Sequence record: PP400782 | From: Escherichia phage FL31 | Length of the DNA stretch: 64,000 bases | Strand: one strand, 5' to 3' | In this document: one piece after another, positions 4,188 to 46,403 of the stretch | Position numbering within the stretch: the stretch's first letter is position 1 | Layout of the letters: every line of letters begins with the position of its first letter | The notes under the pieces: generated by a model | Databases searched by the model: none | What the model saw: the letters and a program-made list of their open reading frames with translations, nothing else | What the model was told of the DNA's origin: nothing | Made by a program: the position numbers and the translations under genes

Positions 4188-4493
4188 TTATTTTCCTCGA
4201 CATTCTTTAATGAAATTTTCTAGATTGGTAGATTCAATAGCTTTTTTACGAGCTTCTGCGTGTTCTTCTTCGGTCAATTTATGTTTATAATTGACCCAGA
4301 CATTATGGTCGAAACTAGTCGTGGCATATAATAACAAAGCTCCGACGAATAATAAAAACGGTGATAAGAATATACAACCAGGCACACCATCCATACTGTA
4401 AGCCTTTTGTAATACTGCAACAGAAAGAGTTGCGTAAAAAAGTGATGCAAATATTGTTAAAAGACCAATTCGGTTGGTTTCGCCTAATTTCAT
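4188..4493 (-). CDS. Hypothetical small membrane protein (two predicted TM helices)
   Basis: ATG 4491-4493 preceded by GAGGAG RBS and palindromic early promoter. Confidence 0.55.
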   Translation of the reverse strand: MKLGETNRIGLLTIFASLFYATLSVAVLQKAYSMDGVPGCIFLSPFLLFVGALLLYATTSFDHNVWVNYKHKLTEEEHAEARKKAIESTNLENFIKECRGK

Positions 4494-4513
4494 AATATTC
4501 TCCTCATGTTTTG

Positions 4514-4550
4514 GTAGGACTACTATAACATAGTCCTATAATTGTGTAAA
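4514..4550 (-). promoter_or_regulatory. Early promoter with stem-loop (TAGGACT..AGTCCTA around -10 TATAGT)
   Basis: Minus strand GTTTACACAATTATAGGACTATGTTATAGTAGTCCTACC. Confidence 0.55.
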
Positions 4551-7757: not shown

Positions 7758-8351
7758 TTATTTCAAAGAGTTAATATATTCTTGTACATCAGCAGAAGTG
7801 GTTTCGACACCGACCGGAGTGCCATTGAATGTTTCGACACGAGTCAGAGTGTCTTCGATATCAACCTTAGTCAGTGCAGCGATTTCAATTACATCATCGG
7901 CCGTAGAGATACCAAGGGCATTGGCTGCTCGAGTTTCACGAATGTATTCGAGTTTGATTGCCAGGTTCTGACGAGCATCGTCAAGTTCAACCACCTTACG
8001 AGCAATTTCAATTCGCATAGCGGCATACCCGTCAGCTTTTGTATTAAGTTGTTCGGCAGTTCGACGATACAGAAGACCAAGCTTAGCATGCATGGTAACA
8101 TCTTGTCCTTCGGCCAGGAGCTTACGAATTTCACGTTCCTTAGAAGCGGCTTGCTTGTTCTTTTCATTAACAAGTTCGCGAATACGTTTTTCTTCATTAA
8201 TAGATTTAACAGAAGCCGTTTTTAGTTCTTTGATTTGGGTAATCAACTTATCTGCAGCTGCGTTATACTGTTCTTCAACAGTCAGATTTTTAGCCATAGC
8301 AGTACCCAGTTTAGTGCGGATGAATTCAACAAGTTTCTTCAGTGTGTTCAT
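7758..8351 (-). CDS. Hypothetical coiled-coil protein (197 aa), faint PspA/IM30-like character
   Basis: Trimmed to ATG 8349-8351; heptad-rich Lys/Glu/Ala/Arg composition; hairpin terminator directly downstream. Confidence 0.5.
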
Positions 8352-8421
8352 ATTATTACCTTTCAATTGGTGGTTTATTATCCAACGAGAGCATTATACT
8401 CTGCTCTCAAGAGTTTGTAAA

Positions 8422-8649
8422 TTATTTTTTAATCAAATTGACATAAAACTTGGCGTCTTCGGGGTGCATGCCTTCGCAGTATTCTTCAACCATGAACTTC
8501 TTAATAGCTTCATAAGGACCACTCAGATTAAGCTCAGTTGTCCAGAACTTGGAATCTTGGGCTGAATCGATACGAACTTCAGGGTGACGGTTGCGAATAA
8601 CTTCTTCGGTGTATTCATAATCAACGACATCAATACTAACTGTAGCCAT
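8422..8649 (-). CDS. Hypothetical protein (75 aa)
   Basis: ATG 8647-8649; GAGGAAAA RBS; early promoter TTTACA-N17-TATAGT at 8680-8708. Confidence 0.5.
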   Translation of the reverse strand: MATVSIDVVDYEYTEEVIRNRHPEVRIDSAQDSKFWTTELNLSGPYEAIKKFMVEEYCEGMHPEDAKFYVNLIKK

Positions 8650-8697
8650 TTTGTTTTCCTCTTGATTTGATAGGAGACTACTATAACATAAACTTAC

Positions 8698-8862
8698 TTA
8701 GATGTAAATTATTTCAACGTCACCTTTAGCTGCTTTATAACCTTCAGCCCAAGATACAACAGAGTTTTTATCTGAGGATTCAAATTCAGGCATTGGACTT
8801 TCACCAATATTCACACAGTATGTTTCTTCATTTTCATCGAACCAAATAATTAAAGTAGTCAT
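8698..8862 (-). CDS. Small ORF (54 aa) below ORF-track cutoff, driven by the duplicated 47-bp cassette
   Basis: ATG 8860-8862; MTTLIIWFDENEETYCVNIGESPMPEF...; promoter, GAGGAG RBS and first codons identical to 45012-45058. Confidence 0.4.
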   Translation of the reverse strand: MTTLIIWFDENEETYCVNIGESPMPEFESSDKNSVVSWAEGYKAAKGDVEIIYI

Positions 8863-8902
8863 TTTGTTTACTCCTCTGTAGTTGATAAGTCTATAGTATC
8901 AC
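8856..8902 (-). repeat. 47-bp exact direct repeat, copy A (early promoter -10, 5'UTR, RBS, ATG and first codons)
   Basis: TAGTCATTTTGTTTACTCCTCTGTAGTTGATAAGTCTATAGTATCAC read on the plus strand; identical at 45012-45058. Confidence 0.85.
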
Positions 8903-8930
8903 CATCCTTGGTGCTTGTACATCATTATTT

Positions 8931-9236
8931 TTAATTTTTCCAACTTAACAACTTGTAGTGTCCTTCATTCATACGTGGTTTATCCCAAGAAATACTAATA
9001 TATGATTCGCTGTCAATAGAAGTCGCCGGGTTTTTCTCTACCGTAAGACCTTCACTTTCCAGCCATTCAATAGTATTTGCGCATAAATCAGAAGAACACC
9101 TAATCGGAAACCGGCAAGATTTTTCACCTTTAGCTGCAGTGTTATACATCTTTTCTAAAATACGCTTTTGCACGTTTTTAAAAATAGTTTCAGCAGATTC
9201 TTCAGATTTTTTATTCAGTTCAGTGTAAAGACTCAT
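8931..9236 (-). CDS. Hypothetical protein (101 aa)
   Basis: ATG 9234-9236; GAGGAG RBS; early promoter GTTTAC-N17-TACTAT at 9265-9293. Confidence 0.5.
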   Translation of the reverse strand: MSLYTELNKKSEESAETIFKNVQKRILEKMYNTAAKGEKSCRFPIRCSSDLCANTIEWLESEGLTVEKNPATSIDSESYISISWDKPRMNEGHYKLLSWKN

Positions 9237-9323
9237 AATATTCTCCTCATGTTTTGATAGGTCTATAGTAACACATCTAGGGAAGAAGTAAACAACTTTT
9301 TCAGTAAGTTATAGACCCCCTAA

Positions 9324-9339
9324 AGGGGACCGAAGTCCC
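9324..9339 (-). terminator. UUCG-tetraloop hairpin after CTS gene 9346-9972
   Basis: Minus strand GGGGAC-TTCG-GTCCCC immediately after the stop. Confidence 0.45.
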
Positions 9340-9345
9340 CATTCT

Positions 9346-9972
9346 TTACTTACGAGTTTTTGCATACTGAGCAGCGTCAGCAGCCAAACGACCTGCCTGA
9401 CGAAGTTTTTCTTTAATCGCATCGTGAAGTGGTTGAGTGTACTTCAAACCTTCGATAGTCAAATAAAGACGATAAAGGTCCGGGGTATCAAGGTTGTTGA
9501 TATGTTGGCCATTACGAAGAATATTGAATTCACGAACGAGTGAAGATGTATCGGATTCAATATCACGAACAAGCGAAGATAGTTGTTTATATTTTTTTTC
9601 CAGACTAGAAGTATCAAACTTAAGAGCAGGAGCTTTAGGAGTTGCTTTTACTTCAGGCTTAGGCTCAGGTTTTGCTATTGCTTTAGGGGTCGCAGGTTTA
9701 GGAATGGAAGGAGTAGGTTTTACTTTAGGCGAACCCGATTTAGCAGAAACACCACCACTAACAATATCTTTGAATGCTTTAGAAGCTCTGTAATATTCTT
9801 TTTGGCTGGAAGTGTCGATACCGTACATGGCTTGAACGTTTTTGAAAAACTCTGTACTAGTTTTTGTACCAGAAATAGCATCGTAAGCAGCTTGCCATTT
9901 CTCTTTTGTCATACGTACACCGGCTTCGGTGATTACTTCCGTTTCGGCTAAAAATTCATTAAAAGTATACAT
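9346..9972 (-). CDS. CTS-bearing capsid-packaged protein candidate (208 aa) with Pro/Lys-rich linker
   Basis: Trimmed to ATG 9970-9972 (MYTFNEFLAE...); RBS TAAGGA; minus-strand TATAAATA at 10008-10015; linker PKVKPTPSIPKPATPKAIAKPEPKPEVKATPKAP. Confidence 0.6.
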   Translation of the reverse strand: MYTFNEFLAETEVITEAGVRMTKEKWQAAYDAISGTKTSTEFFKNVQAMYGIDTSSQKEYYRASKAFKDIVSGGVSAKSGSPKVKPTPSIPKPATPKAIAKPEPKPEVKATPKAPALKFDTSSLEKKYKQLSSLVRDIESDTSSLVREFNILRNGQHINNLDTPDLYRLYLTIEGLKYTQPLHDAIKEKLRQAGRLAADAAQYAKTRK

Positions 9973-12057: not shown

Positions 12058-12228
12058 TCATCAAGTTCGGATGTGTTAAATATAAAAAAAGTTTCGTTTG
12101 TTACCAAGCGTGATATGCGGAGTTAAGTCAATGTTATACAAATTAAGAATATCAGCAATAACCTGATTAACCGCTTTGTTAATTTTCACGCCAGACGATT
12201 CTGAGATGAATTCGTTGAAAGTTTTCAT
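12058..12228 (-). CDS. Small CTS-bearing ORF (56 aa) below ORF-track cutoff
   Basis: ATG 12226-12228; MKTFNEFISESSGVKINKAV...; early promoter TTTACA-N17-TATAGT at 12261-12289. Confidence 0.4.
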
Positions 12229-12252
12229 TTTAGGTTCCATTTGGTTGTTTTG

Positions 12253-12289
12253 ATAGGACTACTATAACATAGTCCTATCATGTTGTAAA
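12253..12289 (-). promoter_or_regulatory. Early promoter with perfect 8-bp stem-loop (ATAGGACT/AGTCCTAT)
   Basis: TTTACA-N17-TATAGT; arms at 12253-12260 and 12271-12278. Confidence 0.55.
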
Positions 12290-12601
12290 TTATTTTATGC
12301 CTTTAGAAGAAATGGTATTTTGGCGTTTGGCCCCTGTTTGTGAAAAATCGTGGTTATCGATTTGGTCAACTCTCATAACACCAAATGCGGATTTAATTTT
12401 GGCTTTTGAACCTTTTTTGATACTAATTATCATATAAGTATCATTTTTCTTATATTCGAAATTTGTTACTTCAACGCCTTGATTAGAAATTGACTTAATA
12501 ATAGCATTAGCGTATTCATCATCTAATGGACCGGTAGTGTTAATAATAAAATTTTTATCTGGTTTAGTAGCTTCAGCGATAAACTCTTGATAAGTTTTCA
12601 T
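12290..12601 (-). CDS. CTS-bearing internal protein at the ipI locus (103 aa)
   Basis: Trimmed to ATG 12599-12601 (MKTYQEFIAEATKPD...), exact T4 IP leader; sits where T4 encodes ipI. Confidence 0.6.
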   Translation of the reverse strand: MKTYQEFIAEATKPDKNFIINTTGPLDDEYANAIIKSISNQGVEVTNFEYKKNDTYMIISIKKGSKAKIKSAFGVMRVDQIDNHDFSQTGAKRQNTISSKGIK

Positions 12602-21283: not shown

Positions 21284-24200
21284 CAGTAAAAGCGCCAGCA
21301 GTCACGAGTCTCAGATTATCTAAATTGTCCGCAAACCAAGTTCAAATTCGCTGGGATGAGGTTGGCGCTAATTTCTACTATTTTGTGGAAATAGCTGAGA
21401 CCAAAACAGCTAACGGGGAAGTAATTCCACGTAATAGCTATAGATGGACTAATTTAGGATATACCGCTGATAACAATTTCTTTGAGTCCGGTTTAAATTC
21501 ATTAACAACATATATGATGCGTGTGGCTACAGCAGCGGAGGGATTTGAGCAGTCTGATTGGAGATACACCGAAGAGTTTGAAACATTTGAAATAAACGCT
21601 TACACATTCCAACATATGATTGAAATGCAATTAGCTAATGAGTTTATTTCTGAAAAATTTACAAAAAATAATACAAACTACGTTGATTTTAATAATGACA
21701 CGATCATGGCAGCCCTGATGAGCGAGTCGTTCCAATTTAGTCCTGCATACACCGATGTGTCGTCGATTAGAAATTTTATAATTGGTGAAAATCAGTATCA
21801 TGAAATCCAGGGGCATATCCAGGACGTATGTAAAGATATAAATCGAGTATATCTAATGGAATCTGAAGGAATTCTTTACCTTTTTGAAAGATTCCAACCT
21901 ATTGTAAAAGTGTCTAATGATAAAGGCCAAACATGGAAAGCGGTTAAATTGCTTAATGACCGTGTAGGATATCCACTTTCACGAACTGTATATTACCAAT
22001 CAGAATATACGACGTATTTGCTCGGCTATGATAAGATTTTTTACGGGCGTAAATCATCCGATATTCGTTGGTCTGCTGATGATGTTCGTTTCAGTTCACA
22101 AGATGTAACATTTGCTAAAATCGGGGACCGATTAAATTTAGGTTTTGATGTAGAGATTTTCGGTACATACGCGTCATTACCAGGAAACGTATCACGTATT
22201 GCAGAAGCTATTACTTGTAATGATGACTATGTTTATATTGCGGCCAGAGATAAAGTTCGCTTCGTTAAAACCAGTAACGCTCCTATTGATTCAGATCCAT
22301 TATCTCCGACCTATTCCGAACGGTTGTTTGAACCTGAGACGTTTACAATAACAGGCAACCCTAAAGCAGTTTGTTATAAAATGGATTCTGTTGGTGGAAG
22401 AATATTCGCTCTTATTATTGGTGAAGTCGAAAACGTTAATGACGACCCAAGAACAAAGCCTATTTTGGATTCCGTTGATAAAGGTGTATACGTTTTAGAC
22501 CATGACGCTGGAACATTTAAAAGGATATTTGGTAATACCGAAGAAGAACGCCGTCGTATAGAACCGGCTTTCACCAATATGTCTACTGATGGTGTTGAGC
22601 TTTATATCTCTTCTAGTAATTTTAAATTTTTAGAATCTGATATTGTTGACGACCCAGAAACGCAATCTAAGTATGGACTTTTAGAAGCAGTTAAGTATGA
22701 ATATCCTAGAGAATGGCTCGCAGATAAACATTACCATATGATGATTTTCGCATCAAACGAAGAAAGTAATTGGGAAACTTTTTCACCAACTCCTATGCAG
22801 TATTATGCAGAACCTTTCTTTAGTTATTCTAGAAAATCAGGCACACGTTCTTGGATTAATAACTCTGATAGAGCGGTAGTGATTTATTCTGATTTGCTTT
22901 ACACAAAGGTAGTGGAAAGCCACCCTAGCACTTCACCTGATCGCAAAGTTCATGAATACTGGAATGATGGCGATTGTAAGATTGTTATGCCGAATATAGA
23001 ATTCACCGGATTTAAAAAATACGCATCTGGTATGTTATTTTATAAATCATCAGGTGAAATAATTTCATATTATGATTTTAGTTATCGTGTTAGAGATAAC
23101 GTTTCTATAATTTGGAAGCCCACTAACGTATTCTTGACCGCCTCATTACAAAACCAAGAAAAAGAAACTTCTTGGGTTCCTGTTGAAGAGACAGGTCTAG
23201 CTGACCCGGATTTACGCCCATTACTCACTACAATGATGCCAGAGTCTTATCTGTTGGATAATACAAACTTTGAAGCATTTTGTGAAGCGTATATTCAATA
23301 TCTTTCTGATGGATACGGGACTCATTATAATAACTTATTGAATTTGATTAAAAATAAATACCCACGAGAAGAACACGCCTGGGAATATCTTTGGTCTGAA
23401 ATTTATAAACGGAACATTTATTTGAATGCTGAGAAACGTGATTTAGTTTCTAGGTTCTTTGAGTCCAGAAGTTATGATTTTTATTCTACTAAAGGAACTG
23501 AAGCGTCGTATAAGTTTTTGTTTAAAGTTCTTTATAACGAAGACGTTGAAGTTGAAATCGAGTCATCTGCTGGAACAGAGTACGATATCATAATTCAATC
23601 TGATTCTATAAGTGAAGATTTGGTTGGACAAACTATATACACCGCTACAGGTAGATGTAATGTTACATATTTAGAAAGAAGCTATTCTAAAGGTAAATTA
23701 CAATGGACTGTGACTATTCATAACCTTTTAGGTAGGCTTTTAGTCGGTCAAGAAGTAAAAGCCGAAAGACTAGCAGATTTTGAAGGTGAAATAGTTCGCG
23801 GTATTAAAGGTAAAGAACTTGCCCAAAACACTATCGATTATTTTAATCGTGGTAGAGCTTATTACGTCATGAAAATAAAGTCAAATCTTCCATCCTCTCG
23901 TTGGAAATCTGACGTACTACGTTTTGTACATCCGGTAGGATTTGGATTTATTGCAATAACCTTATTAACAATGTTTATTAATACAGGATTAACGCTTAAA
24001 CATGTTGGAACTATTATTAATAAATATAAAAATTATAAGTGGGATTCCGGACTGCCTACGGAATATGCAGACCGAGTCGCTCGTTTAGACCCTCAAGGTA
24101 ATGTGGAATTCAATCCTGTTACAGGTGAAGTAATTTATGATGCTGGTCCTTATGCTGGTATCGAATACCCTTTACCTGCAAATTATAACGAAGAAAATGA

Positions 24201-24378
24201 TAACTCTATTTTCCAAGGACAATTACCGTCCGAACGACGCAAGCAAATGAGCCCATTATTTGATGCATCAGGTACAACGTTCTCTAGATTTAGAGAGCTT
24301 GTTAATGAAAGATTGTTAGATAACGTGGGAAATCCTAGAGACCCGATTAATCCACCACAGGTTAAATTAGATGAATGA
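21280..24378 (+). CDS. 7: Baseplate wedge protein gp7
   Basis: 1032 aa, same length as T4 gp7; ATGA overlap with gene 6. Confidence 0.9.
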   Translation: MTVKAPAVTSLRLSKLSANQVQIRWDEVGANFYYFVEIAETKTANGEVIPRNSYRWTNLGYTADNNFFESGLNSLTTYMMRVATAAEGFEQSDWRYTEEFETFEINAYTFQHMIEMQLANEFISEKFTKNNTNYVDFNNDTIMAALMSESFQFSPAYTDVSSIRNFIIGENQYHEIQGHIQDVCKDINRVYLMESEGILYLFERFQPIVKVSNDKGQTWKAVKLLNDRVGYPLSRTVYYQSEYTTYLLGYDKIFYGRKSSDIRWSADDVRFSSQDVTFAKIGDRLNLGFDVEIFGTYASLPGNVSRIAEAITCNDDYVYIAARDKVRFVKTSNAPIDSDPLSPTYSERLFEPETFTITGNPKAVCYKMDSVGGRIFALIIGEVENVNDDPRTKPILDSVDKGVYVLDHDAGTFKRIFGNTEEERRRIEPAFTNMSTDGVELYISSSNFKFLESDIVDDPETQSKYGLLEAVKYEYPREWLADKHYHMMIFASNEESNWETFSPTPMQYYAEPFFSYSRKSGTRSWINNSDRAVVIYSDLLYTKVVESHPSTSPDRKVHEYWNDGDCKIVMPNIEFTGFKKYASGMLFYKSSGEIISYYDFSYRVRDNVSIIWKPTNVFLTASLQNQEKETSWVPVEETGLADPDLRPLLTTMMPESYLLDNTNFEAFCEAYIQYLSDGYGTHYNNLLNLIKNKYPREEHAWEYLWSEIYKRNIYLNAEKRDLVSRFFESRSYDFYSTKGTEASYKFLFKVLYNEDVEVEIESSAGTEYDIIIQSDSISEDLVGQTIYTATGRCNVTYLERSYSKGKLQWTVTIHNLLGRLLVGQEVKAERLADFEGEIVRGIKGKELAQNTIDYFNRGRAYYVMKIKSNLPSSRWKSDVLRFVHPVGFGFIAITLLTMFINTGLTLKHVGTIINKYKNYKWDSGLPTEYADRVARLDPQGNVEFNPVTGEVIYDAGPYAGIEYPLPANYNEENDNSIFQGQLPSERRKQMSPLFDASGTTFSRFRELVNERLLDNVGNPRDPINPPQVKLDE

Positions 24379-25375
24379 TTCAAGTGTTGTCTATCGTTCG
24401 ATAGTTACTTCAAAATTTAGAACTGAAAAAATGTTGAATTTCTACAATTCAATAGGTGATGGTGATAATAAAAACACCATCTTTATAACGTTTGGTCGGT
24501 CTGAACCATGGGCTGCTAATGAAAATGAGGTGGGCTTCGCCCCGCCGTATCCAACAGACTCGGTTTTAGGTGTAACAGATATGTGGACTAACATGATGGG
24601 TTTAGTTAAAGTTATCCCATCTATGTTAGACTCGGTTATTCCTAGACGTGACTGGGGAGATATTCGTTATCCAGACCCTTATACATTCAAAATAAATGAT
24701 ATAGTCGTATGTAATACAGCCCCTTATAATGCTACTGAAGACGGGGCAGGATGGTTAGTATATCGTTGCGTAGATGTTCCTGATGTTGGGATGTGTTCTA
24801 TTGAGTCTCTCGACAACAAAGAAGAATGTCTTAAATTAGGTGGTAAATGGACTCCATCTGTTAGGTCTTTAACACCTCCTGAAGGCCGTGGAGATGCTGA
24901 AGGGATTATCGAAGTTGGTGATGGATATATATGGGAGTATCTTTATGAGATTCCACCTGATGTGTCTATAAACCGATGTACTAATGAATATATAGTCGTT
25001 CCATGGCCGGAAGAAGTTAAAGAAGACCCTGCTCGTTGGGGATATGAAAACAATCTAACCTGGCAACAAGATGATTTTGGCCTTGTGTATAGAGTTAAAG
25101 CAAACATAATTCGTTTTAAAGCCTATTTAGACTCAGTTTATTTCCCTAATGCAGCACTGCCTGGTAATAAAGGATTTAGACAAATTTCTATTATCACAAA
25201 CCCGTTGGAAGCTAAACTCCGTCCTAATGACCCTAATATAAAAGCTGAAAAGGATTATTATGACCCCAGAGATTTACAGCGTCATTCTGGTGAAATGATT
25301 TATATGGAAAACCGTCCACCTATTATTATGGCAATGGACCAAACCGAAGAGATCAATATTTTGTTTATGTTCTAA
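24371..25375 (+). CDS. 8: Baseplate wedge protein gp8
   Basis: 334 aa, same length as T4 gp8; synteny. Confidence 0.9.
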   Translation: MNDSSVVYRSIVTSKFRTEKMLNFYNSIGDGDNKNTIFITFGRSEPWAANENEVGFAPPYPTDSVLGVTDMWTNMMGLVKVIPSMLDSVIPRRDWGDIRYPDPYTFKINDIVVCNTAPYNATEDGAGWLVYRCVDVPDVGMCSIESLDNKEECLKLGGKWTPSVRSLTPPEGRGDAEGIIEVGDGYIWEYLYEIPPDVSINRCTNEYIVVPWPEEVKEDPARWGYENNLTWQQDDFGLVYRVKANIIRFKAYLDSVYFPNAALPGNKGFRQISIITNPLEAKLRPNDPNIKAEKDYYDPRDLQRHSGEMIYMENRPPIIMAMDQTEEINILFMF

Positions 25376-25379
25376 TTTA

Positions 25380-25397
25380 GGGAGACTTCGGTCTCCC
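25380..25397 (+). terminator. UUCG-tetraloop hairpin after gene 8
   Basis: GGGAGAC-TTCG-GTCTCCC followed by TTT; identical 18-mer recurs at 44721-44738. Confidence 0.55.
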
Positions 25398-25404
25398 TTT
25401 CGTG

Positions 25405-25412
25405 TATAAATA
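25405..25412 (+). promoter_or_regulatory. Late promoter TATAAATA for gene 9
   Basis: TATAAATA 25 nt upstream of the gp9 ATG; AAGGA RBS. Confidence 0.6.
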
Positions 25413-25437
25413 GTATAAACTATTAAGGATTAGCCAC

Positions 25438-26301
25438 ATGTATATTCAAACTCCAAAACAATTGATTGACGTTGGCGAAATTGGTAACGCTTCTACAGGC
25501 GATATCCTTTTTGACGGCGGTGTTAAAATAAACAGTGATATAAATGCTATTTACAACGCGTTTGGTGATCAACGAAAAATGGCAACTGCTAATGGGACAG
25601 GACCAAATGGACAAATAATCCATGCCACTGGATACTACCAAAAAGGAGGTCCTACTGATTATTTCACCCCTGTTCCAGTAGGAAGTAGACATGACATAGA
25701 TGCTTCTACCGGTGGTGTTATTGTTACTGTTGCTAGAGGTGAACTCGGTGATTCCGTGGAATTTATAAATTCAAACGGGTCAATTTCTGTAAACAACCCA
25801 TTAAGTATCCAAGCATTAGATTCTATTAAAGGTGTTGCAGGTAATTTAGTTATAACTACACCTTATACTAAAGTTACTCTTCGTTGTATTTCTTCTGGTG
25901 CAGGCGGTTCAATATGGGATTATTCTACAGAAAGTATGTTTAGTCATACCGAAATTCCTGTAGACGGGACATGGAATATTATTTCAGACTATGTCAATAT
26001 TCCTCTATTTTATAAAACTGAATATAATGCTGCTAAACTTTTGGTTACATGCCAATCTGCCAACGGTAGAAAAATTAAATCATGTGAAATAAATATTCTA
26101 ATAGATACAATTAATTCAAGAGTTATTTCAACCGAATACGCAGTGATGCGCGTTGGAAATGATAACGAAGAAGATGAAATTGCGAATATTAGTTTTTCGA
26201 TAATTAACAATTTTGCCACTATGACAGTTTCTTCACATATAAATGGTCTTCGAGTGGCAGCTAAAGTTATTTCAACTCAGAAAATTAGGGTCGCTCAATA
26301 A
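25438..26301 (+). CDS. 9: Baseplate wedge protein gp9 (long tail fibre socket)
   Basis: 287 aa; IDVGEIGNASTGDILFDGG... matches T4 gp9 as recalled. Confidence 0.9.
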   Translation: MYIQTPKQLIDVGEIGNASTGDILFDGGVKINSDINAIYNAFGDQRKMATANGTGPNGQIIHATGYYQKGGPTDYFTPVPVGSRHDIDASTGGVIVTVARGELGDSVEFINSNGSISVNNPLSIQALDSIKGVAGNLVITTPYTKVTLRCISSGAGGSIWDYSTESMFSHTEIPVDGTWNIISDYVNIPLFYKTEYNAAKLLVTCQSANGRKIKSCEINILIDTINSRVISTEYAVMRVGNDNEEDEIANISFSIINNFATMTVSSHINGLRVAAKVISTQKIRVAQ

Positions 26302-28115
26302 TGAAACAAAATATTAAAATTGGGAACGTCGTTGATGACGGACAAGGCGATTACCTTCGTCGTGGTGGTGCAAAAATTAATGAAAACTTTGATGAGTTGT
26401 ATTATGAATTAGGCGATGGCGAAGTTCCATATTCCGCTGGTGCCTGGAAAACATACCATTCTTCAGATGGACTTAATTTAGCTGCTGAATGGGGTAAATC
26501 ATACGCAATTGATACTTCAACAGGGCGTGTTTCTATAAATTTACCTAAAGGAACAGTGGAAGATTATAATAAAGTAATTAGAGCCCGTGATGTATTCGCC
26601 ACATGGAATATTAACCCTGTAACATTAATTGCTGCCAGCGGTGATACTATTAAAGGTTCTTCTAGCCCAGTAGAAATCAATGTGCAGTTTTCAGACTTAG
26701 AATTAGTTTACTGTTCTCCTGGGCGATGGGAATACGTTAAAAATAAACAAATAGACAAAATTACTAGTTCTGATATTAGTAGTGTAGCTCGTAAAGAATT
26801 TTTAGTCGAAGTTCAAGGTCAAACTGATTTTCTTGATGTATTTGGGTCTGTTTCTTATAATGTGAATAATATCCGTGTAAAACATCGTGGTAACGAATTA
26901 TACTACGGTGATGCGTTCAGTGACAATAGTGACTTTGGTTCTCCAGGAGCTAATCCTGGTGAAATCGTTGCATTAGATGGTAAAAACATCCGTTTAAGAC
27001 AACCATGTAATATTGGCGACACCGTACAAATTGAAACCTTTTTGGATGGGATTACACAATTACGCAGTTCTTATTCTCGCCGCCAAATACGTATTTTAGA
27101 TTCGAAATTAACAACCCGTCCTTCCTTAGAAGGAAGTGTATATGTCGCTGATTTGTCAACTTTGAAATCTATTCCTTTTTCGGCATTTGGAGTTAATCCT
27201 TCAGAACCTGTCAATACTAATTCTTTAGAAGTTCGTTTTAATGGTATTCTTCAAGAATTAGCTGGTACTGTTGGTTTACCTATGTTCAGATGTGAAGGTG
27301 CTGATGCAGAAACTTCTACCGAGTGTTCAGCTTTAGGTGGGACTTGGGTTACATCTAACACCGATTATTCTATTGAATATGATGATAACGATGCAACTAT
27401 TGCACGTGCTTTAGTCTTTGACCGTAAGTTTGAAGACCAAGACATTATTGATATTACATGGTTTAATAACGATTTAGGCACTTTATTAAGTATCGATGAC
27501 ATTTTAGATACAACTGATGAAAGATATGTTGCACAAGGTGCAACCGTAAATGTGACCGGCGATGTGGCTTTGACCGATTTCAATAATATCGGATGGCCTA
27601 ATGTAGAATCTGTTCCGGCATATAGCAGGGAATTCTCATCTATTGCAAATATTTTTAACACTATTTACCCTGTCGGTACTATTTACGAAAATGCAGTGAA
27701 CCCTAATAACCCAGCCACGTATTTAGGATTTGGCTCTTGGAAATTATGGGGACAAGGAAAAGTATTAGTTGGATGGAACGACGATATTAGCGATCCTAAT
27801 TTTGCATTAAATAATAACGACCTTGATTCTAGCGGGAATCCTACACATACCGCCGGTGGAACAGTCGGAACAACGTCTAACACACTAACTAATTCTGATT
27901 TACCTCCTACTCAAACTGACGAGAAAGTTCTTATTTCCGATGAGAACGGTACAATTATTATTGGTGGCTGTCAATACGACCCTGATGCAGAAGGTCCTAT
28001 ATACACCAAATACCGTGAAGGCCACGCCACAACGAATAGTACACACATACCGCCTCAAGCCGTAAATAATATTCAACCGTCAATTACCGTATACCGTTGG
28101 GTAAGGATTGCATAA
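26301..28115 (+). CDS. 10: Baseplate wedge protein gp10
   Basis: 604 aa; synteny 9-10-11-12. Confidence 0.9.
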
Positions 28116-28774
28116 TGACCATACTTAATACTAAAGCGGGAGTAATATCCCGCGAAGCAGATTTTTTAGGATTTAGAAAAAATCCTACTCAAATTGATAT
28201 TTTAAACAACCAAGGCGTAGGTTCTGTAACCATTTCTCAATTGGCAAAAGGATTCTACGATGATAACGTAGAATCTGCAATAAACGATGTTCATAATATT
28301 GCTAGAGCAGATGTAGGAACAGTTACAATTAACACCTCAGGTGTATCTCCTGAAGGAACTTCACAGGTAGATTATTGGTCCTTTAGTGGAAGTGTAACTG
28401 ACCCTAGTTTGCCCGATGGAAGCCCTGTTATTGTAAAAGTTTACGGGCTTCCTGTTAATGCTACTGTAGGTATGACAGCCGACGAATTTGTTGTACAATT
28501 ACGTACTACTCTCCGGAATGCGATTTCCGACCAATTGGCTATTGCAGAGTATAAAGATGACCCTACTGTTGGGACTAAATTACAAATAACATATTTAGAT
28601 AACCAAAGACACGTACTCCCAACGTATTCCTCTTATGGTATCACGGTTTCTCAAGAAATAGTGTCTCAGGCTAAGTCCGGGTACGGCACTTGGAATTTAC
28701 TAGGTGCGCAAACCATTACTCTTGACAACCATATTTCACCTACAACCTTTTATTATTTTGTGAGAACCGCATGA
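28115..28774 (+). CDS. 11: Baseplate wedge protein gp11 (short tail fibre attachment)
   Basis: Trimmed to ATG 28115 ([20 protein letters not shown]...), 219 aa; TAATG overlap with gene 10; track start is TTG. Confidence 0.9.
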
Positions 28775-30321
28775 GTAACAATACATATCAACACGTTTCG
28801 AACGAATCGGTATATGTTGAATTTGACCCGGTAGGGTCAAATTTTGATAGTTCAATAACCAATGTCCAGGCAGCCTTAGCCTCAATTAGCGCATATGGTG
28901 TTAAAGGTGTTCCGGACGCAAGCGAAGCAGAAAAAGGTGTAATTCAATTAGCGACAGAACAAGAAGTTCTTGATGGATTTAATAGTACTAAAGCCGTTAC
29001 ACCCGCCACATTAAATGCAAGACTTCAGTATCCGAACGCGTCAGAAACACAGTACGGCGTAACTAAATATGCAACACAAGAGGAGGCCATTGCTGGCACT
29101 TTAGACACTGTTTCTATTACTCCGCTTAAATTAAACCAAACTATTGATAACACGTTCTCTACTCGTTATTCAACAGAAACAACTAACGGTGTTATTAAAA
29201 TTGCAACTCAAACCGCTGCACTTGCCGGGTCTGATGACACCACAGCAATGACTCCGCTTAAAACGCAGCAATTAGCAATAAAATTAATTTCTCAAATAGC
29301 TCCTAATAACGACCCGGCTTCAGAATCTATTACCGGTGTTGTGCGTTTAGCTACGGTGGCTCAAACACGTCAAGGAACTCTTCGCGAAGGATATGCAATT
29401 TCCCCATATACCTTTATGAATTCTGTTGCAACACAAGAATATAAAGGTGTTATACGTCTAGGAACACAAGCGGAAATTAATAGTAATTTGGGAGATGTTG
29501 CTGTAACAGGTGAAACGCTAAATGGTAGAGGAGCTACCGGTTCTATGCGTGGAGTCGTAAAATTAACGACGCAGGCCGGTATTGCCCCTGAAGGCGATAG
29601 CTCCGGAGCATTAGCATGGAACGCAGATGTAATTAATACACGCGGTGGACAAACTATTAATGGTTCTTTAAATTTAGATCACCTCACAGCAAATGGAATT
29701 TGGTCGCGTGGCGGAATGTGGAAAAACGGTGACCAGCCAGTTGCAACAGAGAGATATGCATCTGAACGTGTTCCTGTTGGAACAATTCAAATGTTCGCAG
29801 GTGATAGCGCTCCTCCAGGTTGGGTTTTATGTCATGGTGGGACCATTTCTGGAGACCAATTTCCGGACTATCGAAATGTGGTTGGAACAAGATTTGGCGG
29901 TGATTGGAATAATCCTGGAATTCCGGATATGCGCGGCCTTTTTGTTAGAGGAGCTGGTACTGGCAGTCATATTTTAAATAATCGTGGCCAAGACGGCTAT
30001 GGAAAGGATAGATTAGGTGTAGGATGTGACGGCATGCATGTTGGTGGTGTCCAAGCACAACAAATGTCATATCATAAACATGCCGGTGGATGGGGCGAAT
30101 ATCAACGTCATGAGGCACCGTTCGGAGCATCCGTATATCAAGGTTATTTAGGTACTAGAAAATACTCTGATTGGGATAACGCATCATATTTCACAAATGA
30201 CGGCTTCGAATTAGGTGGTCACCGCGACGCGCTGGGTACTCTTAACCGTGAAGGACTTATCGGATATGAGACTCGTCCGTGGAATATATCTTTAAATTAT
30301 ATTATTAAAGTCCATTACTAA
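28771..30321 (+). CDS. 12: Short tail fibre protein gp12
   Basis: 516 aa; repeat-rich N-terminal half and His-rich C-terminal receptor-binding region. Confidence 0.9.
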
Positions 30322-30330
30322 GGGTAAAAA

Positions 30331-31773
30331 ATGATCGAATTAAAAAGTCTACCATATGTTGATGGCCCTCCTGACGAGGGTCAAAAACGTTTAAACTGGA
30401 TTAAAAATTCAGAAGAAATAACTGGTGCTGACACGTTATATGGTTCTGAAGGAGTAATGAACCGTCCAATAACAGAAGTTCAACGAAATGTGGAAACAAT
30501 TAACGATAACGTTAAGACTATTGCAGAATCTTTAGATACCGCTAATGCTGATATTGTCACAATTAAAAGTATCTTGGATGTTTCTGGTGACGTAGATGCT
30601 TTAGCACAAATTGGACATAACACTGATGATATTGAAGTATTAAAACATACTGTAAATTCACACGGTGTTGATATTTTAAACACTGAAGAAAAACTAGATG
30701 ATACTATTGCTAATATCGGAGTAGTTAATCCGGAAACAGATTCAGTGTATCGTACGGTGCGTAACGACCTTCTTTGGATTAAAACCGAATTAGGGCAATA
30801 TACTGGACAAGATATTAATGGTGTCCCGACCGAAGGTAATGAAAGCACCGGGATGAAACGACGTATTATTACTAACAGCTCAGTGTTGGTTGACCAAGGC
30901 GTTCGTTTAACCGAGTTGGAAAATAAATTTGCCGATTCTGATGTTGGGGCTCTGACAACTGAAGTTGAAAACCTCCGCCAAGAAATGGGTCCTAGACCAT
31001 CGTTAACAGTACCGGTTTACACTCGTTTATCTAGTATTGATTCATCCATTTCTATCCAAACCAGAGATATTGCGGCATTAAAAGATTTTGTTGGATATCC
31101 TAATTCAACCGCTATTAAAACTCAAGTCGAGGCCAATCGTCTTTCTATATCAACAATAAATTCAGACATTAACTCGCCTGGTGGTATTAAACCACGTTTG
31201 ACAACGTTAGAAACTACTATAGGCTCTCCGGATTTACCGACTACTCTTCAGGGTAAGATCAAATTAAATACCGATTCCATTTCAGGTATTAACACAGTTT
31301 TAGGTGTTGATTCTTCTAGCGGTTTACGTTTTAACGTAGCATGGCTTAATCAGGTGGTTGGCGTCGATTCAAATGGTGGACAACCTGAACCGGCTGGTTC
31401 ACTTTTATATAGGACTCGTATTCTTGAAAATGGTGTTACTGACCTAGGCAATAACATTCAAAACGTTCAAACCGAATTGGGAACTAATTCGTCCGGTATT
31501 AAAGGACAAGTGACTAGTTTAAATAAACTTATAAGCGGCACTAACCCAAACGGTCAAACCATAGAAGAACGTGGTATATTGCCAACAGTTAAAAACCATG
31601 ACACGACAATTACGGATTTAACTACGCGTGTTACCACTTTAGAAACAGACCTTGCTGCAGCAGAAGAAGAAATTCAAGCCCTTAAAGAGGCCGGATATAT
31701 CGAAGACGCTCCTTCAGACGGTAAATTCTATGTTCGTAAAGATGGTGCTTGGGTTGAACTTCCTACAGCTTAA
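30331..31773 (+). CDS. wac: Fibritin (whiskers, neck collar)
   Basis: 480 aa coiled-coil ending in foldon-like GYIEDAPSDGKFYVRKDGAWVELPTA. Confidence 0.9.
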   Translation: MIELKSLPYVDGPPDEGQKRLNWIKNSEEITGADTLYGSEGVMNRPITEVQRNVETINDNVKTIAESLDTANADIVTIKSILDVSGDVDALAQIGHNTDDIEVLKHTVNSHGVDILNTEEKLDDTIANIGVVNPETDSVYRTVRNDLLWIKTELGQYTGQDINGVPTEGNESTGMKRRIITNSSVLVDQGVRLTELENKFADSDVGALTTEVENLRQEMGPRPSLTVPVYTRLSSIDSSISIQTRDIAALKDFVGYPNSTAIKTQVEANRLSISTINSDINSPGGIKPRLTTLETTIGSPDLPTTLQGKIKLNTDSISGINTVLGVDSSSGLRFNVAWLNQVVGVDSNGGQPEPAGSLLYRTRILENGVTDLGNNIQNVQTELGTNSSGIKGQVTSLNKLISGTNPNGQTIEERGILPTVKNHDTTITDLTTRVTTLETDLAAAEEEIQALKEAGYIEDAPSDGKFYVRKDGAWVELPTA

Positions 31774-44696: not shown

Positions 44697-44720
44697 TCTT
44701 AATTGATTAAATCTTATTTT

Positions 44721-44738
44721 GGGAGACTTCGGTCTCCC
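44721..44738 (+). terminator. UUCG-tetraloop hairpin plus T-run after gene 23
   Basis: GGGAGAC-TTCG-GTCTCCC followed by ATTTTTGG; same 18-mer as 25380-25397. Confidence 0.65.
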
Positions 44739-44748
44739 ATTTTTGGTT

Positions 44749-45018
44749 TTATTTCTGTGCAATTTCGATGTAAGTTTTCAAAATATTTTGCCAATTAGGC
44801 ATACCTTCTTGGACATATGCCGGAGAACCATCTTTGTTTTTGAATGATGCAAGTTTATCAGTGGCCCAATAACCTTTAGCTCGAGCTTCAGAATCAACTT
44901 TCATCCATACTTTGTTGAAGGCATTACCATTAACTTTTGCACCGTATTTTTCTACTAACTTAACTGCTTCAGCTTCCAGAACTTTTAAAGTATCTCGTAA
45001 GAAACGTGCTTTAGTCAT
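44749..45018 (-). CDS. Small early protein (89 aa) on the opposite strand in the 23-24 intergenic slot
   Basis: ATG 45016-45018; own early promoter GTTTACA-N17-TACTAT; MTKARFLRDTLKVLEAEAVKLVEKYGAKVNGN...; T4 carries segD here (recall). Confidence 0.55.
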   Translation of the reverse strand: MTKARFLRDTLKVLEAEAVKLVEKYGAKVNGNAFNKVWMKVDSEARAKGYWATDKLASFKNKDGSPAYVQEGMPNWQNILKTYIEIAQK

Positions 45019-45058
45019 TTTGTTTACTCCTCTGTAGTTGATAAGTCTATAGTATCAC
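45012..45058 (-). repeat. 47-bp exact direct repeat, copy B
   Basis: Identical to 8856-8902 by direct comparison of the two stretches. Confidence 0.85.
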
Positions 45059-45078
45059 ATACTAAATACGTTGTAAAC
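45049..45078 (-). promoter_or_regulatory. Early promoter (GTTTACA-N17-TACTAT) for ORF 44749-45018
   Basis: -10 and 5'UTR are part of the 47-bp cassette repeated at 8856-8902. Confidence 0.55.
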
Positions 45079-45119: not shown

Positions 45120-46403
45120 ATGAGTAAAATCCAAAAATTATTGCGTGAATCTACAACGTCTACTAGCAACTCAATTGGTCGCCCAAATCTCGTTGCTTTG
45201 ACTCGCGCTACGACTAAATTAATATATTCTGACATTGTAGCAACACAAAGAACTAATCAACCTGTTGCTGCTTTTTATGGTATCAAATATCTTAACCCAG
45301 ATAACGAATTCACATTTAAAACCGGTGCTACTTATGCTGGCGAAGTTGGATATGTAGACCGAGAAAAAATTACTGAGCTCACAGAAGAATCAAAAGTCAC
45401 ACTAAATAAAGGTGATTTTTTCAAATATAATAATATCGTCTATAAAGTGTTAGAAGATACACCATTTGCAGATATTCAAGAAAGTGATCTAGAATTAGCT
45501 CTTCAGATTGCAGTCGTTCATTTAAAGGTACGGTTATTTTCAGATGCAGCGGTAACAAGCAAATTTGAAAGCTCTGATAGCGAAATTTCTGATGCAAGAT
45601 TCCAGATTAATAAATGGCAAACTTCAGTCAAATCTCGCAAACTTAAAACTGGTCTCACGGTTGAATTAGCGCAAGATTTGGAAGCGAATGGATTTGATGC
45701 TCCTAACTTCTTAGAGGATTTGCTTGCTACTGAAATGGCTGATGAAATTAATAAAGATATTCTTCAGTCTTTAATTACTGTATCGAAACGTTATAAAGTT
45801 ACTGGAATTACTGACACCGGATTTATTGACTTGAGCTATGCATCCGCTCCAGAAGCAGGTCGTTCATTATATCGAATGGTGTGTGAAATGGTATCACACA
45901 TTCAAAAAGAGACAACTTATACTGCAACGTTTTGTGTAGCCTCAGCTCGTGCAGCTGCTATTCTTGCTGCTTCCGGTTGGTTAAAACATAAGCCAGAAGA
46001 TGACAAGTATCTTTCACAAAATGCTTATGGATTCTTGGCAAATGGATTACCTCTTTACTGCGATACCAACAGTCCGTTAGATTATGTTATTGTTGGTGTT
46101 GTAGAAAATATCGGCGAAAAAGAAATTGTAGGGTCCATCTTTTATGCTCCATACACTGAAGGAGTAGATTTAGATGACCCGGAACATGTTGGTGCATTTA
46201 AAGTTGTAGTTGATCCAGAAAGCTTGCAACCGTCTATCGGATTATTGGTTAGATATGCTTTATCAGCAAATCCTTACACAGTAGCAAAAGATGAAAAAGA
46301 AGCGAGAGTAATTGATGGCGGGGACATGGATAAAATGGCAGGACGTTCAGACTTGTCTGTTTTACTCGGTGTTAAATTGCCTAAAATTATTATAGATGAA
46401 TAA
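45120..46403 (+). CDS. 24: Capsid vertex protein gp24
   Basis: 427 aa, same length as T4 gp24; gp23-like fold expected. Confidence 0.9.
   Translation: MSKIQKLLRESTTSTSNSIGRPNLVALTRATTKLIYSDIVATQRTNQPVAAFYGIKYLNPDNEFTFKTGATYAGEVGYVDREKITELTEESKVTLNKGDFFKYNNIVYKVLEDTPFADIQESDLELALQIAVVHLKVRLFSDAAVTSKFESSDSEISDARFQINKWQTSVKSRKLKTGLTVELAQDLEANGFDAPNFLEDLLATEMADEINKDILQSLITVSKRYKVTGITDTGFIDLSYASAPEAGRSLYRMVCEMVSHIQKETTYTATFCVASARAAAILAASGWLKHKPEDDKYLSQNAYGFLANGLPLYCDTNSPLDYVIVGVVENIGEKEIVGSIFYAPYTEGVDLDDPEHVGAFKVVVDPESLQPSIGLLVRYALSANPYTVAKDEKEARVIDGGDMDKMAGRSDLSVLLGVKLPKIIIDE

Follow-up and report, generated by a model that had tools for sequence, protein, structure and literature searches.

Two unrelated small genes of Escherichia phage FL31 share an identical 47-nt predicted early leader at loci of gene-module exchange

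The window analyzed here (64,000 nt of Escherichia phage FL31) comes from a Mosigvirus, an RB69-like T4-type phage; its segment 8300-9600 shares 99.8% identity with Escherichia phage vB_EcoM_G2469 (G2469) and 97-99% with many other Mosigvirus. Two of its small ORFs, ORF54 and ORF89, are considered below (Table 1). ORF54 adjoins frd.3 and belongs to an early-gene cluster between the e.8-side genes and frd.3/e.6. ORF89 is an early gene too; it lies in antisense orientation in the short gap that separates late gene 23 (major capsid) from late gene 24 (vertex), where it represents one of two alleles, type A. The two ORFs had been predicted to be unrelated, and paralogy can indeed be rejected: BLASTP yields no alignment between their products, which fall into different PHROG families (5461 vs 6003). 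A Pfam search with ORF89 produced only a sub-threshold match to DUF4859. In RB69 the genes 188c and 189c together correspond to a frameshifted 89-aa ORF (RB69 locus 45292-45532), to be explained either as a pseudogene or by old sequencing errors.

A stem-loop with a UUCG loop is situated between the 3' ends of gene 23 and ORF89. The scan called it a plus-strand terminator, and it is conserved in all alleles of the 23-24 gap. From its position, this stem-loop would terminate the ORF89 unit, which is therefore likely to be a self-contained early transcription unit within the late head-gene block. UUCG-loop terminator hairpins (GGGAGACTTCGGTCTCCC) are found at two late-gene ends of the window, 25371-25400 and 44712-44741, and are 90% identical over 30 nt.

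Table 1. Features of the two loci and of the neighboring early genes
Feature	Position	Strand	Description
ORF54 (54 aa, starts MTTLII)	8698-8862	-	RB69ORF145c homolog; PHROG 5461; no assigned function
ORF89 (89 aa, starts MTKARF)	44749-45018	-	RB69ORF188c/189c homolog; PHROG 6003; no assigned function
Leader copy 1	8856-8902	-	GTGA; -10 box TACTAT, 8898-8893; 5'UTR; SD GAGGAG, 8876-8871; ATG, 8862-8860; ACTA
Leader copy 2	45012-45058	-	-10 box TACTAT, 45054-45049; SD GAGGAG, 45032-45027; ATG, 45018-45016
Copy-1 -35 box TGTACA	8916-8921	-	17-nt spacer; preceded by an 85% A+T stretch
Copy-2 -35 box TTTACA	45072-45077	-	17-nt spacer
frd.3 promoter and leader	8647-8714	-	-35 box, 8708-8703; -10 box TATAGT, 8685-8680; ..GAGGAAAACAAAATG
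Canonical PeSL	9228-9340	-	Stop codon; hairpin GGGGACTTCGGTCCCC, 9325-9340; AT-rich stretch; TTTACT-16-TACTAT; GAGGAG; ATG of ORF 8931-9236
Type-B leader	9242-9274	-	Within the canonical PeSL; 33/33 identical to the leader of the JK45 23-24 ORF
Stem-loop TGGGAGACTTCGGTCTCCCA, UUCG loop	44720-44739		Between the 3' ends of gene 23 and ORF89

The 5' ends of ORF54 and ORF89 are covered by the two copies of an exact 47-nt repeat, which lie about 36 kb apart and have the minus strand as their functional strand; read on this strand, the shared sequence is GTGATACTATAGACTTATCAACTACAGAGGAGTAAACAAAATGACTA. Both copies were found where the original prediction had placed them, and its parsing of the repeat into a -10 box TACTAT, a 5'UTR, a ribosome-binding site GAGGAG, the ATG and two codons is correct on the minus strand. 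The identical block begins 4 nt 5' of the -10 box and ends 4 nt 3' of the ATG. Judged by its motifs, it comprises the -10 box, a leader of about 25 nt, a strong Shine-Dalgarno (SD) sequence, the ATG and codon 2 of a predicted T4-type early (sigma-70) unit. In both copies the -10 box is extended (TGnTACTAT), GAGGAG stands 8 nt ahead of the ATG, and the first codons are ATG ACT. The -35 boxes, the spacers and the AT-rich upstream regions differ between the loci and lie outside the 47-nt block. In either case the 20 nt upstream of the -35 box are 85% A+T; at copy 1 the AT-rich stretch overlaps the stop codon of the upstream ORF at 8931, and at copy 2 it doubles as the late promoter of gene 24 on the plus strand (TATAAATA).

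The early-promoter consensus of the promoter-early stem-loop (PeSL) cassettes of T4/PST is TTTACW-N17-TAYWAT (PMC4122927). Copy 2, with TTTACA-17-TACTAT, fits this consensus, and copy 1, with TGTACA-17-TACTAT, matches its -35 box at five of the six positions. Both promoters are also listed among the independent HMM predictions for RB69, as Pe:72567 (copy 1) and Pe:109605 (copy 2) (PMC1524935), together with the overlapping late promoter of gene 24, Pl:109573 (PMC1524935 supplement). The two copies are thus putative promoters, presumably active early in infection.

The similarity between the loci ends abruptly on both sides, as had been predicted. Over 60 nt, the sequences upstream of the two copies are 37% identical, which reflects the residual promoter consensus, and those downstream are 27% identical. 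With these flank identities and a repeat search of the window, a longer duplicated block, a possibility raised with the original prediction, is ruled out: the 47-mer stands alone between unrelated flanks. A search tolerating up to three mismatches revealed no third copy in the 64-kb window, and no match to the 47-mer occurred in 100 dinucleotide-preserving shuffles. Copies beyond the window were gauged from the BLAST place counts and the best partial matches, the closest of which is the leader of regB (85%). An exact scan of IMG/VR with the core 29-mer of the leader gave no matches, so that the comparative evidence comes entirely from cultured coliphage genomes.

Two further groups of similar 5' regions were observed in the window. 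A 24-nt block comprising UTR, ribosome-binding site and start (CAAAACATGAGGAGAATATTATGA) is identical at 4490-4513 and 9233-9256 (minus strand) in front of two different ORFs and represents a second example of a shared leader. Five small minus-strand ORFs (600-620, 940-960, 1264-1284, 2024-2044 and 12581-12601) start with nearly the same 21 nt, ATGAAAACATATAAAGAATTT, encoding MKTYKEF...; they may be paralogous small early proteins or may carry another shared 5' module.

The window contains 14 recognizable minus-strand early promoters, and we compared their 47-nt segments anchored on the -10 box. The 90 other pairs share on average 22.9 of 47 positions (sd 5.0, maximum 37), while the pair formed by copies 1 and 2 shares all 47, that is, 4.8 sd above the mean of the leader family. 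In front of other genes in other phages, the nearest leaders are those of JS98 alc, ATK47 regB and T4 denV (85-87% identical). A family of similar early leaders thus exists, and the copy 1/copy 2 pair stands apart from its other members. Convergence on an optimal promoter and ribosome-binding site would draw on the likeness among T4-type early promoters, whose extended consensus runs through +1 and the SD sequence and whose identities within the family are 62-87%; however, the best other pair reaches only 37/47. The second source of a spurious repeat, mis-assembly, was raised in the original prediction. Against it stands the recurrence of both junctions at 99% identity or more in independently sequenced genomes: 90 phage records contain the leader-ORF54 junction, and 110 contain the one between the leader and ORF89. 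Convergence and artefact are effectively refuted by the leader-pair statistics and by this recurrence, and either would now be most surprising.

We found no stem-loop at either copy. The folds of the 47-mer, of the mature leader and of the 70-90 nt upstream of each -10 box had z-scores between -0.1 and +0.8 relative to shuffles, and no terminator-like site was flagged by the scan at the two promoters. At copy 1 only 9 nt separate the stop of the upstream ORF from the -35 box, too few for an intergenic hairpin. Rfam yielded no match for the leader, and its chance matches were confined to the terminator. Near these loci, stem-loops occur only in the neighboring cassette upstream of copy 1 and at the 3' end of the copy-2 unit (Table 1).

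The neighboring cassette, at approximately 9225-9340 on the minus strand and one gene upstream of copy 1, is a canonical PeSL. Inverted repeats of another kind were seen at six minus-strand early promoters (-10 boxes at 4527, 5822, 8685, 11937, 12266 and 12642), in which arms of 8-12 bp (ATAGGACTA..TAGTCCTAT) surround the -10 box. The member at 12225-12290 folds with -17.8 kcal/mol (z = -4.2), and the core AGGA..TCCT of this six-member family resembles the 'AGNA-loop-TCNT' stems reported for the PeSLs of the PST type.

Comparison of both loci in related phages, which had been proposed with the original prediction, showed that ORF54 is absent from NHEP11 and SF and that the 23-24 ORF is replaced in JK45, VR5 and LF82-9. 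The recombinant junctions expected at the borders of the cassette were found as well, and in NHEP11, SF and LF82-9 they lie inside the leader.

On the frd.3 side, RB69, G2469 and JS09 carry copy 1 unchanged, and JK45 has it with one mismatch. The ORF that precedes it in JK45 is a different one, and the two sequences become alike again about 15 nt ahead of the -35 box, within the AT-rich stretch. In NHEP11 and SF the same promoter and leader, up to GAGGAG, are fused to AAACAAAATG and the frd.3 coding sequence (...ACAGAGGAG-AAACAAAATGGCTACA); this leader-frd.3 junction recurs at 99% identity or more in 10 phage records. The 10-mer AAACAAAATG is present in the window both at the start of ORF54 (8860-8869) and at the start of frd.3 (8647-8656), forming direct repeats that flank the ORF54 module. 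Recombination between the two 10-mers predicts GAGGAGTAAACAAAATGG, and NHEP11 and SF carry GAGGAGAAACAAAATGG, with one T fewer, so their junction is not the exact deletion product. Owing to the missing T, insertion and deletion of ORF54 are indistinguishable, and an extra mutation or another parent has to be assumed. The frd.3 module is flanked in its turn by a 12-nt direct repeat, AAATAATTTACA, made of the AT-rich stretch and the -35 box (8416-8427 and 8703-8714, minus strand).

An ortholog of ORF54 is found outside the genus, in Yersinia phage PST (Tequatrovirus). This gene, ORF130, is 91% identical to ORF54 at the nucleotide level and has an orthologous -35 box and spacer; its leader is about 80% similar to copy 1, with two indels. 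In PST the ortholog lies directly next to e.6, and frd.3 is absent. The ORF54 protein is 96-98% identical in amino acids to its Tequatrovirus counterparts. A recent intergeneric transfer was considered and rejected, as the nucleotide identity to PST is 91% and most differences are, by eye, synonymous; purifying selection on ORF54 fits this pattern better.

In the 23-24 gap, copy 2 is identical to the window in G2469, JS09, NHEP11 and SF and has three mismatches in RB69. The second allele of the gap occurs in JK45 and in the Dhakavirus VR5, where the encoded protein is about 31% identical to type A. Its leader in these two phages, 'type B', is identical over 33/33 positions to a leader found in the window itself (Table 1), and the gene behind the latter, ORF 8931-9236, is the one immediately upstream of copy 1. 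Conserved sequences delimit the module that varies between A and B: the -35/late promoter at one end and the terminator hairpin at the other. In JK45 and LF82-9 a segD-like homing endonuclease gene directly follows the allele-B ORF. LF82-9 is a chimera, consisting of the type-A -35 box, spacer and first 32 nt of the 47-mer, followed by the type-B spacer, the allele-B ORF and the endonuclease gene. The switch takes place exactly after GAGGAG (LF82-9 locus 1130-1290), which places the crossover in the SD sequence. Four genes were thus found behind one leader: ORF54, ORF89, frd.3 (NHEP11 and SF) and the allele-B ORF with its endonuclease gene (LF82-9).

The chimera raises the question of homing-endonuclease traffic, under which the shared leader would be a by-product of break repair, with co-conversion tracts ending in the promoter region. 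The 23-24 gap serves as a homing site (for segD, in T4 and phages of the JK45/LF82 type), the segD-like gene of JK45 and LF82-9 lies immediately downstream of the allele-B ORF, the breakpoint of LF82-9 adjoins the endonuclease module, and homing endonucleases have been named as a parallel source of plasticity (PMC4122927). The LF82-9 chimera could therefore stem from co-conversion by a homing endonuclease and not from a property of the leader. As an account of the repeat, however, homing does not fit FL31 and the other type-A phages, whose gap carries no endonuclease gene, nor the position of the twin leader, 36 kb away in a region without such a gene; moreover, it leaves unexplained the presence or absence of ORF54 and the junctions of the frd.3 module. 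We consider it a very improbable explanation.

We regard it as likely that the leader was copied by recombination and then served as a portable junction for the shuffling of gene modules, in the manner of PeSLs. The leader would confer immediate-early expression on the small ORF that follows it, whichever that may be. One copy may have been made identical to the other through homologous (homeologous) recombination or gene conversion among similar early leaders, the mechanism that we infer for the copying. The converted tract would then correspond to the full stretch over which leaders are alike, from about -14 to just past the ATG, and would end at the unrelated spacers and coding sequences. 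Thereafter the leader could act as a portable junction at which ORF modules are inserted, deleted and swapped among Mosigvirus, with the short homologies GAGGAG and AAACAAAATG inside the leader and the -35/AT-rich boxes as crossover patches. Recombination in T4-type phages is reported to need less than 50 bp of homology (cited in PMC2839356).

The frd.3-side locus was probably the donor and the 23-24 locus the recipient, as the flanks of copy 1 are orthologous in PST and the 23-24 site has varied leaders. As to the age of the event, the perfect identity had been taken to imply a recent exchange, and this part of the original prediction did not hold. Both copies are present in 5/5 sampled Mosigvirus that carry the type-A 23-24 ORF. 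The duplication, found in every sampled type-A genome, therefore predates the split of those lineages, RB69 included. In RB69 copy 2 has diverged by three positions and copy 1 by none, which gives no sign of continuing homogenization.

The same distribution bears on another explanation, in which the leader was copied once and its identity was then kept by selection for a shared trans-acting factor. Candidates would be RegB/S1 cleavage in GGAG, a translational repressor or the phage-modified RNA polymerase, and the repeat would be the signature of a small regulon and not a recombination scar. Consistent with this, both loci keep the block unchanged in five sampled Mosigvirus, and the only decay is in RB69, whose downstream ORF carries a frameshift; leaders 85-87% identical precede alc, regB and denV in other genera; and GGAG followed by an A-rich stretch has the general form of RegB/S1 sites (PMC1702504). 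The RegB/S1 consensus, however, is GGAGRAYARAA, a single-stranded 11-nt site in which C at position 9 never occurs in good substrates (PMC1702504). The corresponding stretch of the leader, GGAGUAAACAA, lies in an unstructured region, matches this consensus at 8/11 positions and has the disfavored C at position 9. The leader has no RNA structure (z about 0) and no Rfam match. Furthermore, the genomes diverge by only 1-3% overall, so an invariant 47-nt block is expected without special selection, and selection would not account for the breakpoints that NHEP11, SF and LF82-9 have within the leader. We hold selective maintenance after a single copying to be unlikely. It is rather improbable, too, that the segment from -14 to the ATG is a selected expression module kept identical by recurrent conversion or by a trans-acting factor reading the leader. 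If it were, regulation of the two orphan genes would be coupled, and the unit of exchange would be the leader and not the promoter with its stem-loop.

The genome also shows mosaicism on a larger scale. The baseplate block at 23000-31000, which in the gene order of RB69 corresponds to gp7-gp12 (baseplate wedge and short tail fibre), shows 97-99% identity to NHEP11, ST2, SF and LF82-1 and only about 77% to G2469, JS09, JK45 and mar005P1. Since this block is nearest to the NHEP11 group and 8300-9600 is nearest to G2469, FL31 combines segments from different Mosigvirus lineages.

Taken together with copying and module exchange as the preferred reading, these data add the RB69 group as a fourth branch of T4-like phages in which small early genes are gained, lost and swapped at breakpoints in promoter/RBS leaders, and one of the swapped small genes resides within an otherwise conserved head-gene block. 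They suggest that the stem-loop is dispensable for a promoter cassette to act as a junction and that the segment between the SD sequence and the ATG is a preferred crossover zone. For annotators and phage engineers, identical leaders in coliphages of the therapeutic type represent natural recombination sites.

Several known systems resemble this pair of loci. The internal-protein (IP) genes of T-even phages reportedly share a conserved promoter, ribosome-binding site and 5'-end segment, and shuffling of the genes behind it is said to have been proposed by Repoila and colleagues in 1994. As at the IP loci, unrelated small genes stand behind one shared promoter/RBS/5' segment; the IP segment, however, reaches into a functional N-terminal targeting peptide, whereas the FL31 repeat includes two codons and implies no such function. 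The segD homing cassettes occupy the same slot in the 23-24 gap, accompany the allele-B ORF in JK45 and LF82-9 and likewise cause modules to be replaced, but the FL31 gap has no endonuclease gene and the leader repeat is not associated with one. The RB69 early-promoter catalogue (Nolan et al. 2006, PMC1524935) includes both promoters; its entries for them treat each promoter singly and mention neither the identity of the leaders nor a role as junction.

The closest relatives are the PeSLs, described for RB49/phi1, T4/PST and KVP40/nt-1 (Arbiol et al. 2010, PMC2839356; Comeau et al. 2014, PMC4122927); the RB69 group is treated in neither paper, and the term 'RB69' has no occurrence in PMC2839356. 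A PeSL is defined as a stem-loop plus an early promoter and ends in the SD sequence and ATG (PMC2839356; PMC4122927). The FL31 copies share with PeSLs a sigma-70-like early promoter, the AT-rich upstream region and the SD sequence and ATG at the 3' extremity. Like PeSLs, they lie beside small genes of unassigned function that differ between close relatives, at sites of insertion, deletion or replacement with the crossover inside the element. The junctions fall between the -10 box and the ATG in both systems, those of PeSLs being known from sequenced mini-circles and those described here from genome sequences. The FL31 copies differ in that they have no stem-loop, in that they are identical over 47 nt as compared with the conservation of PeSLs over about 100 nt, and in that copy 2 stands alone in a conserved head-gene block, antisense to late genes, whereas PeSLs form tandem arrays in hyperplastic regions. 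The PeSL identity originally proposed for the repeat therefore holds for the early promoter and the junctions inside the element, but not for the stem-loop, which is absent, and the identity is restricted to the -10-to-ATG part. Both copies are promoter cassettes without a stem-loop and at best 'half' PeSLs, the term used, along with degraded PeSLs, for such elements in the literature (PMC2839356; PMC4122927). The FL31 pair is a case of PeSL-like modular shuffling in the RB69 group, which is of a known kind and not a new mechanism.
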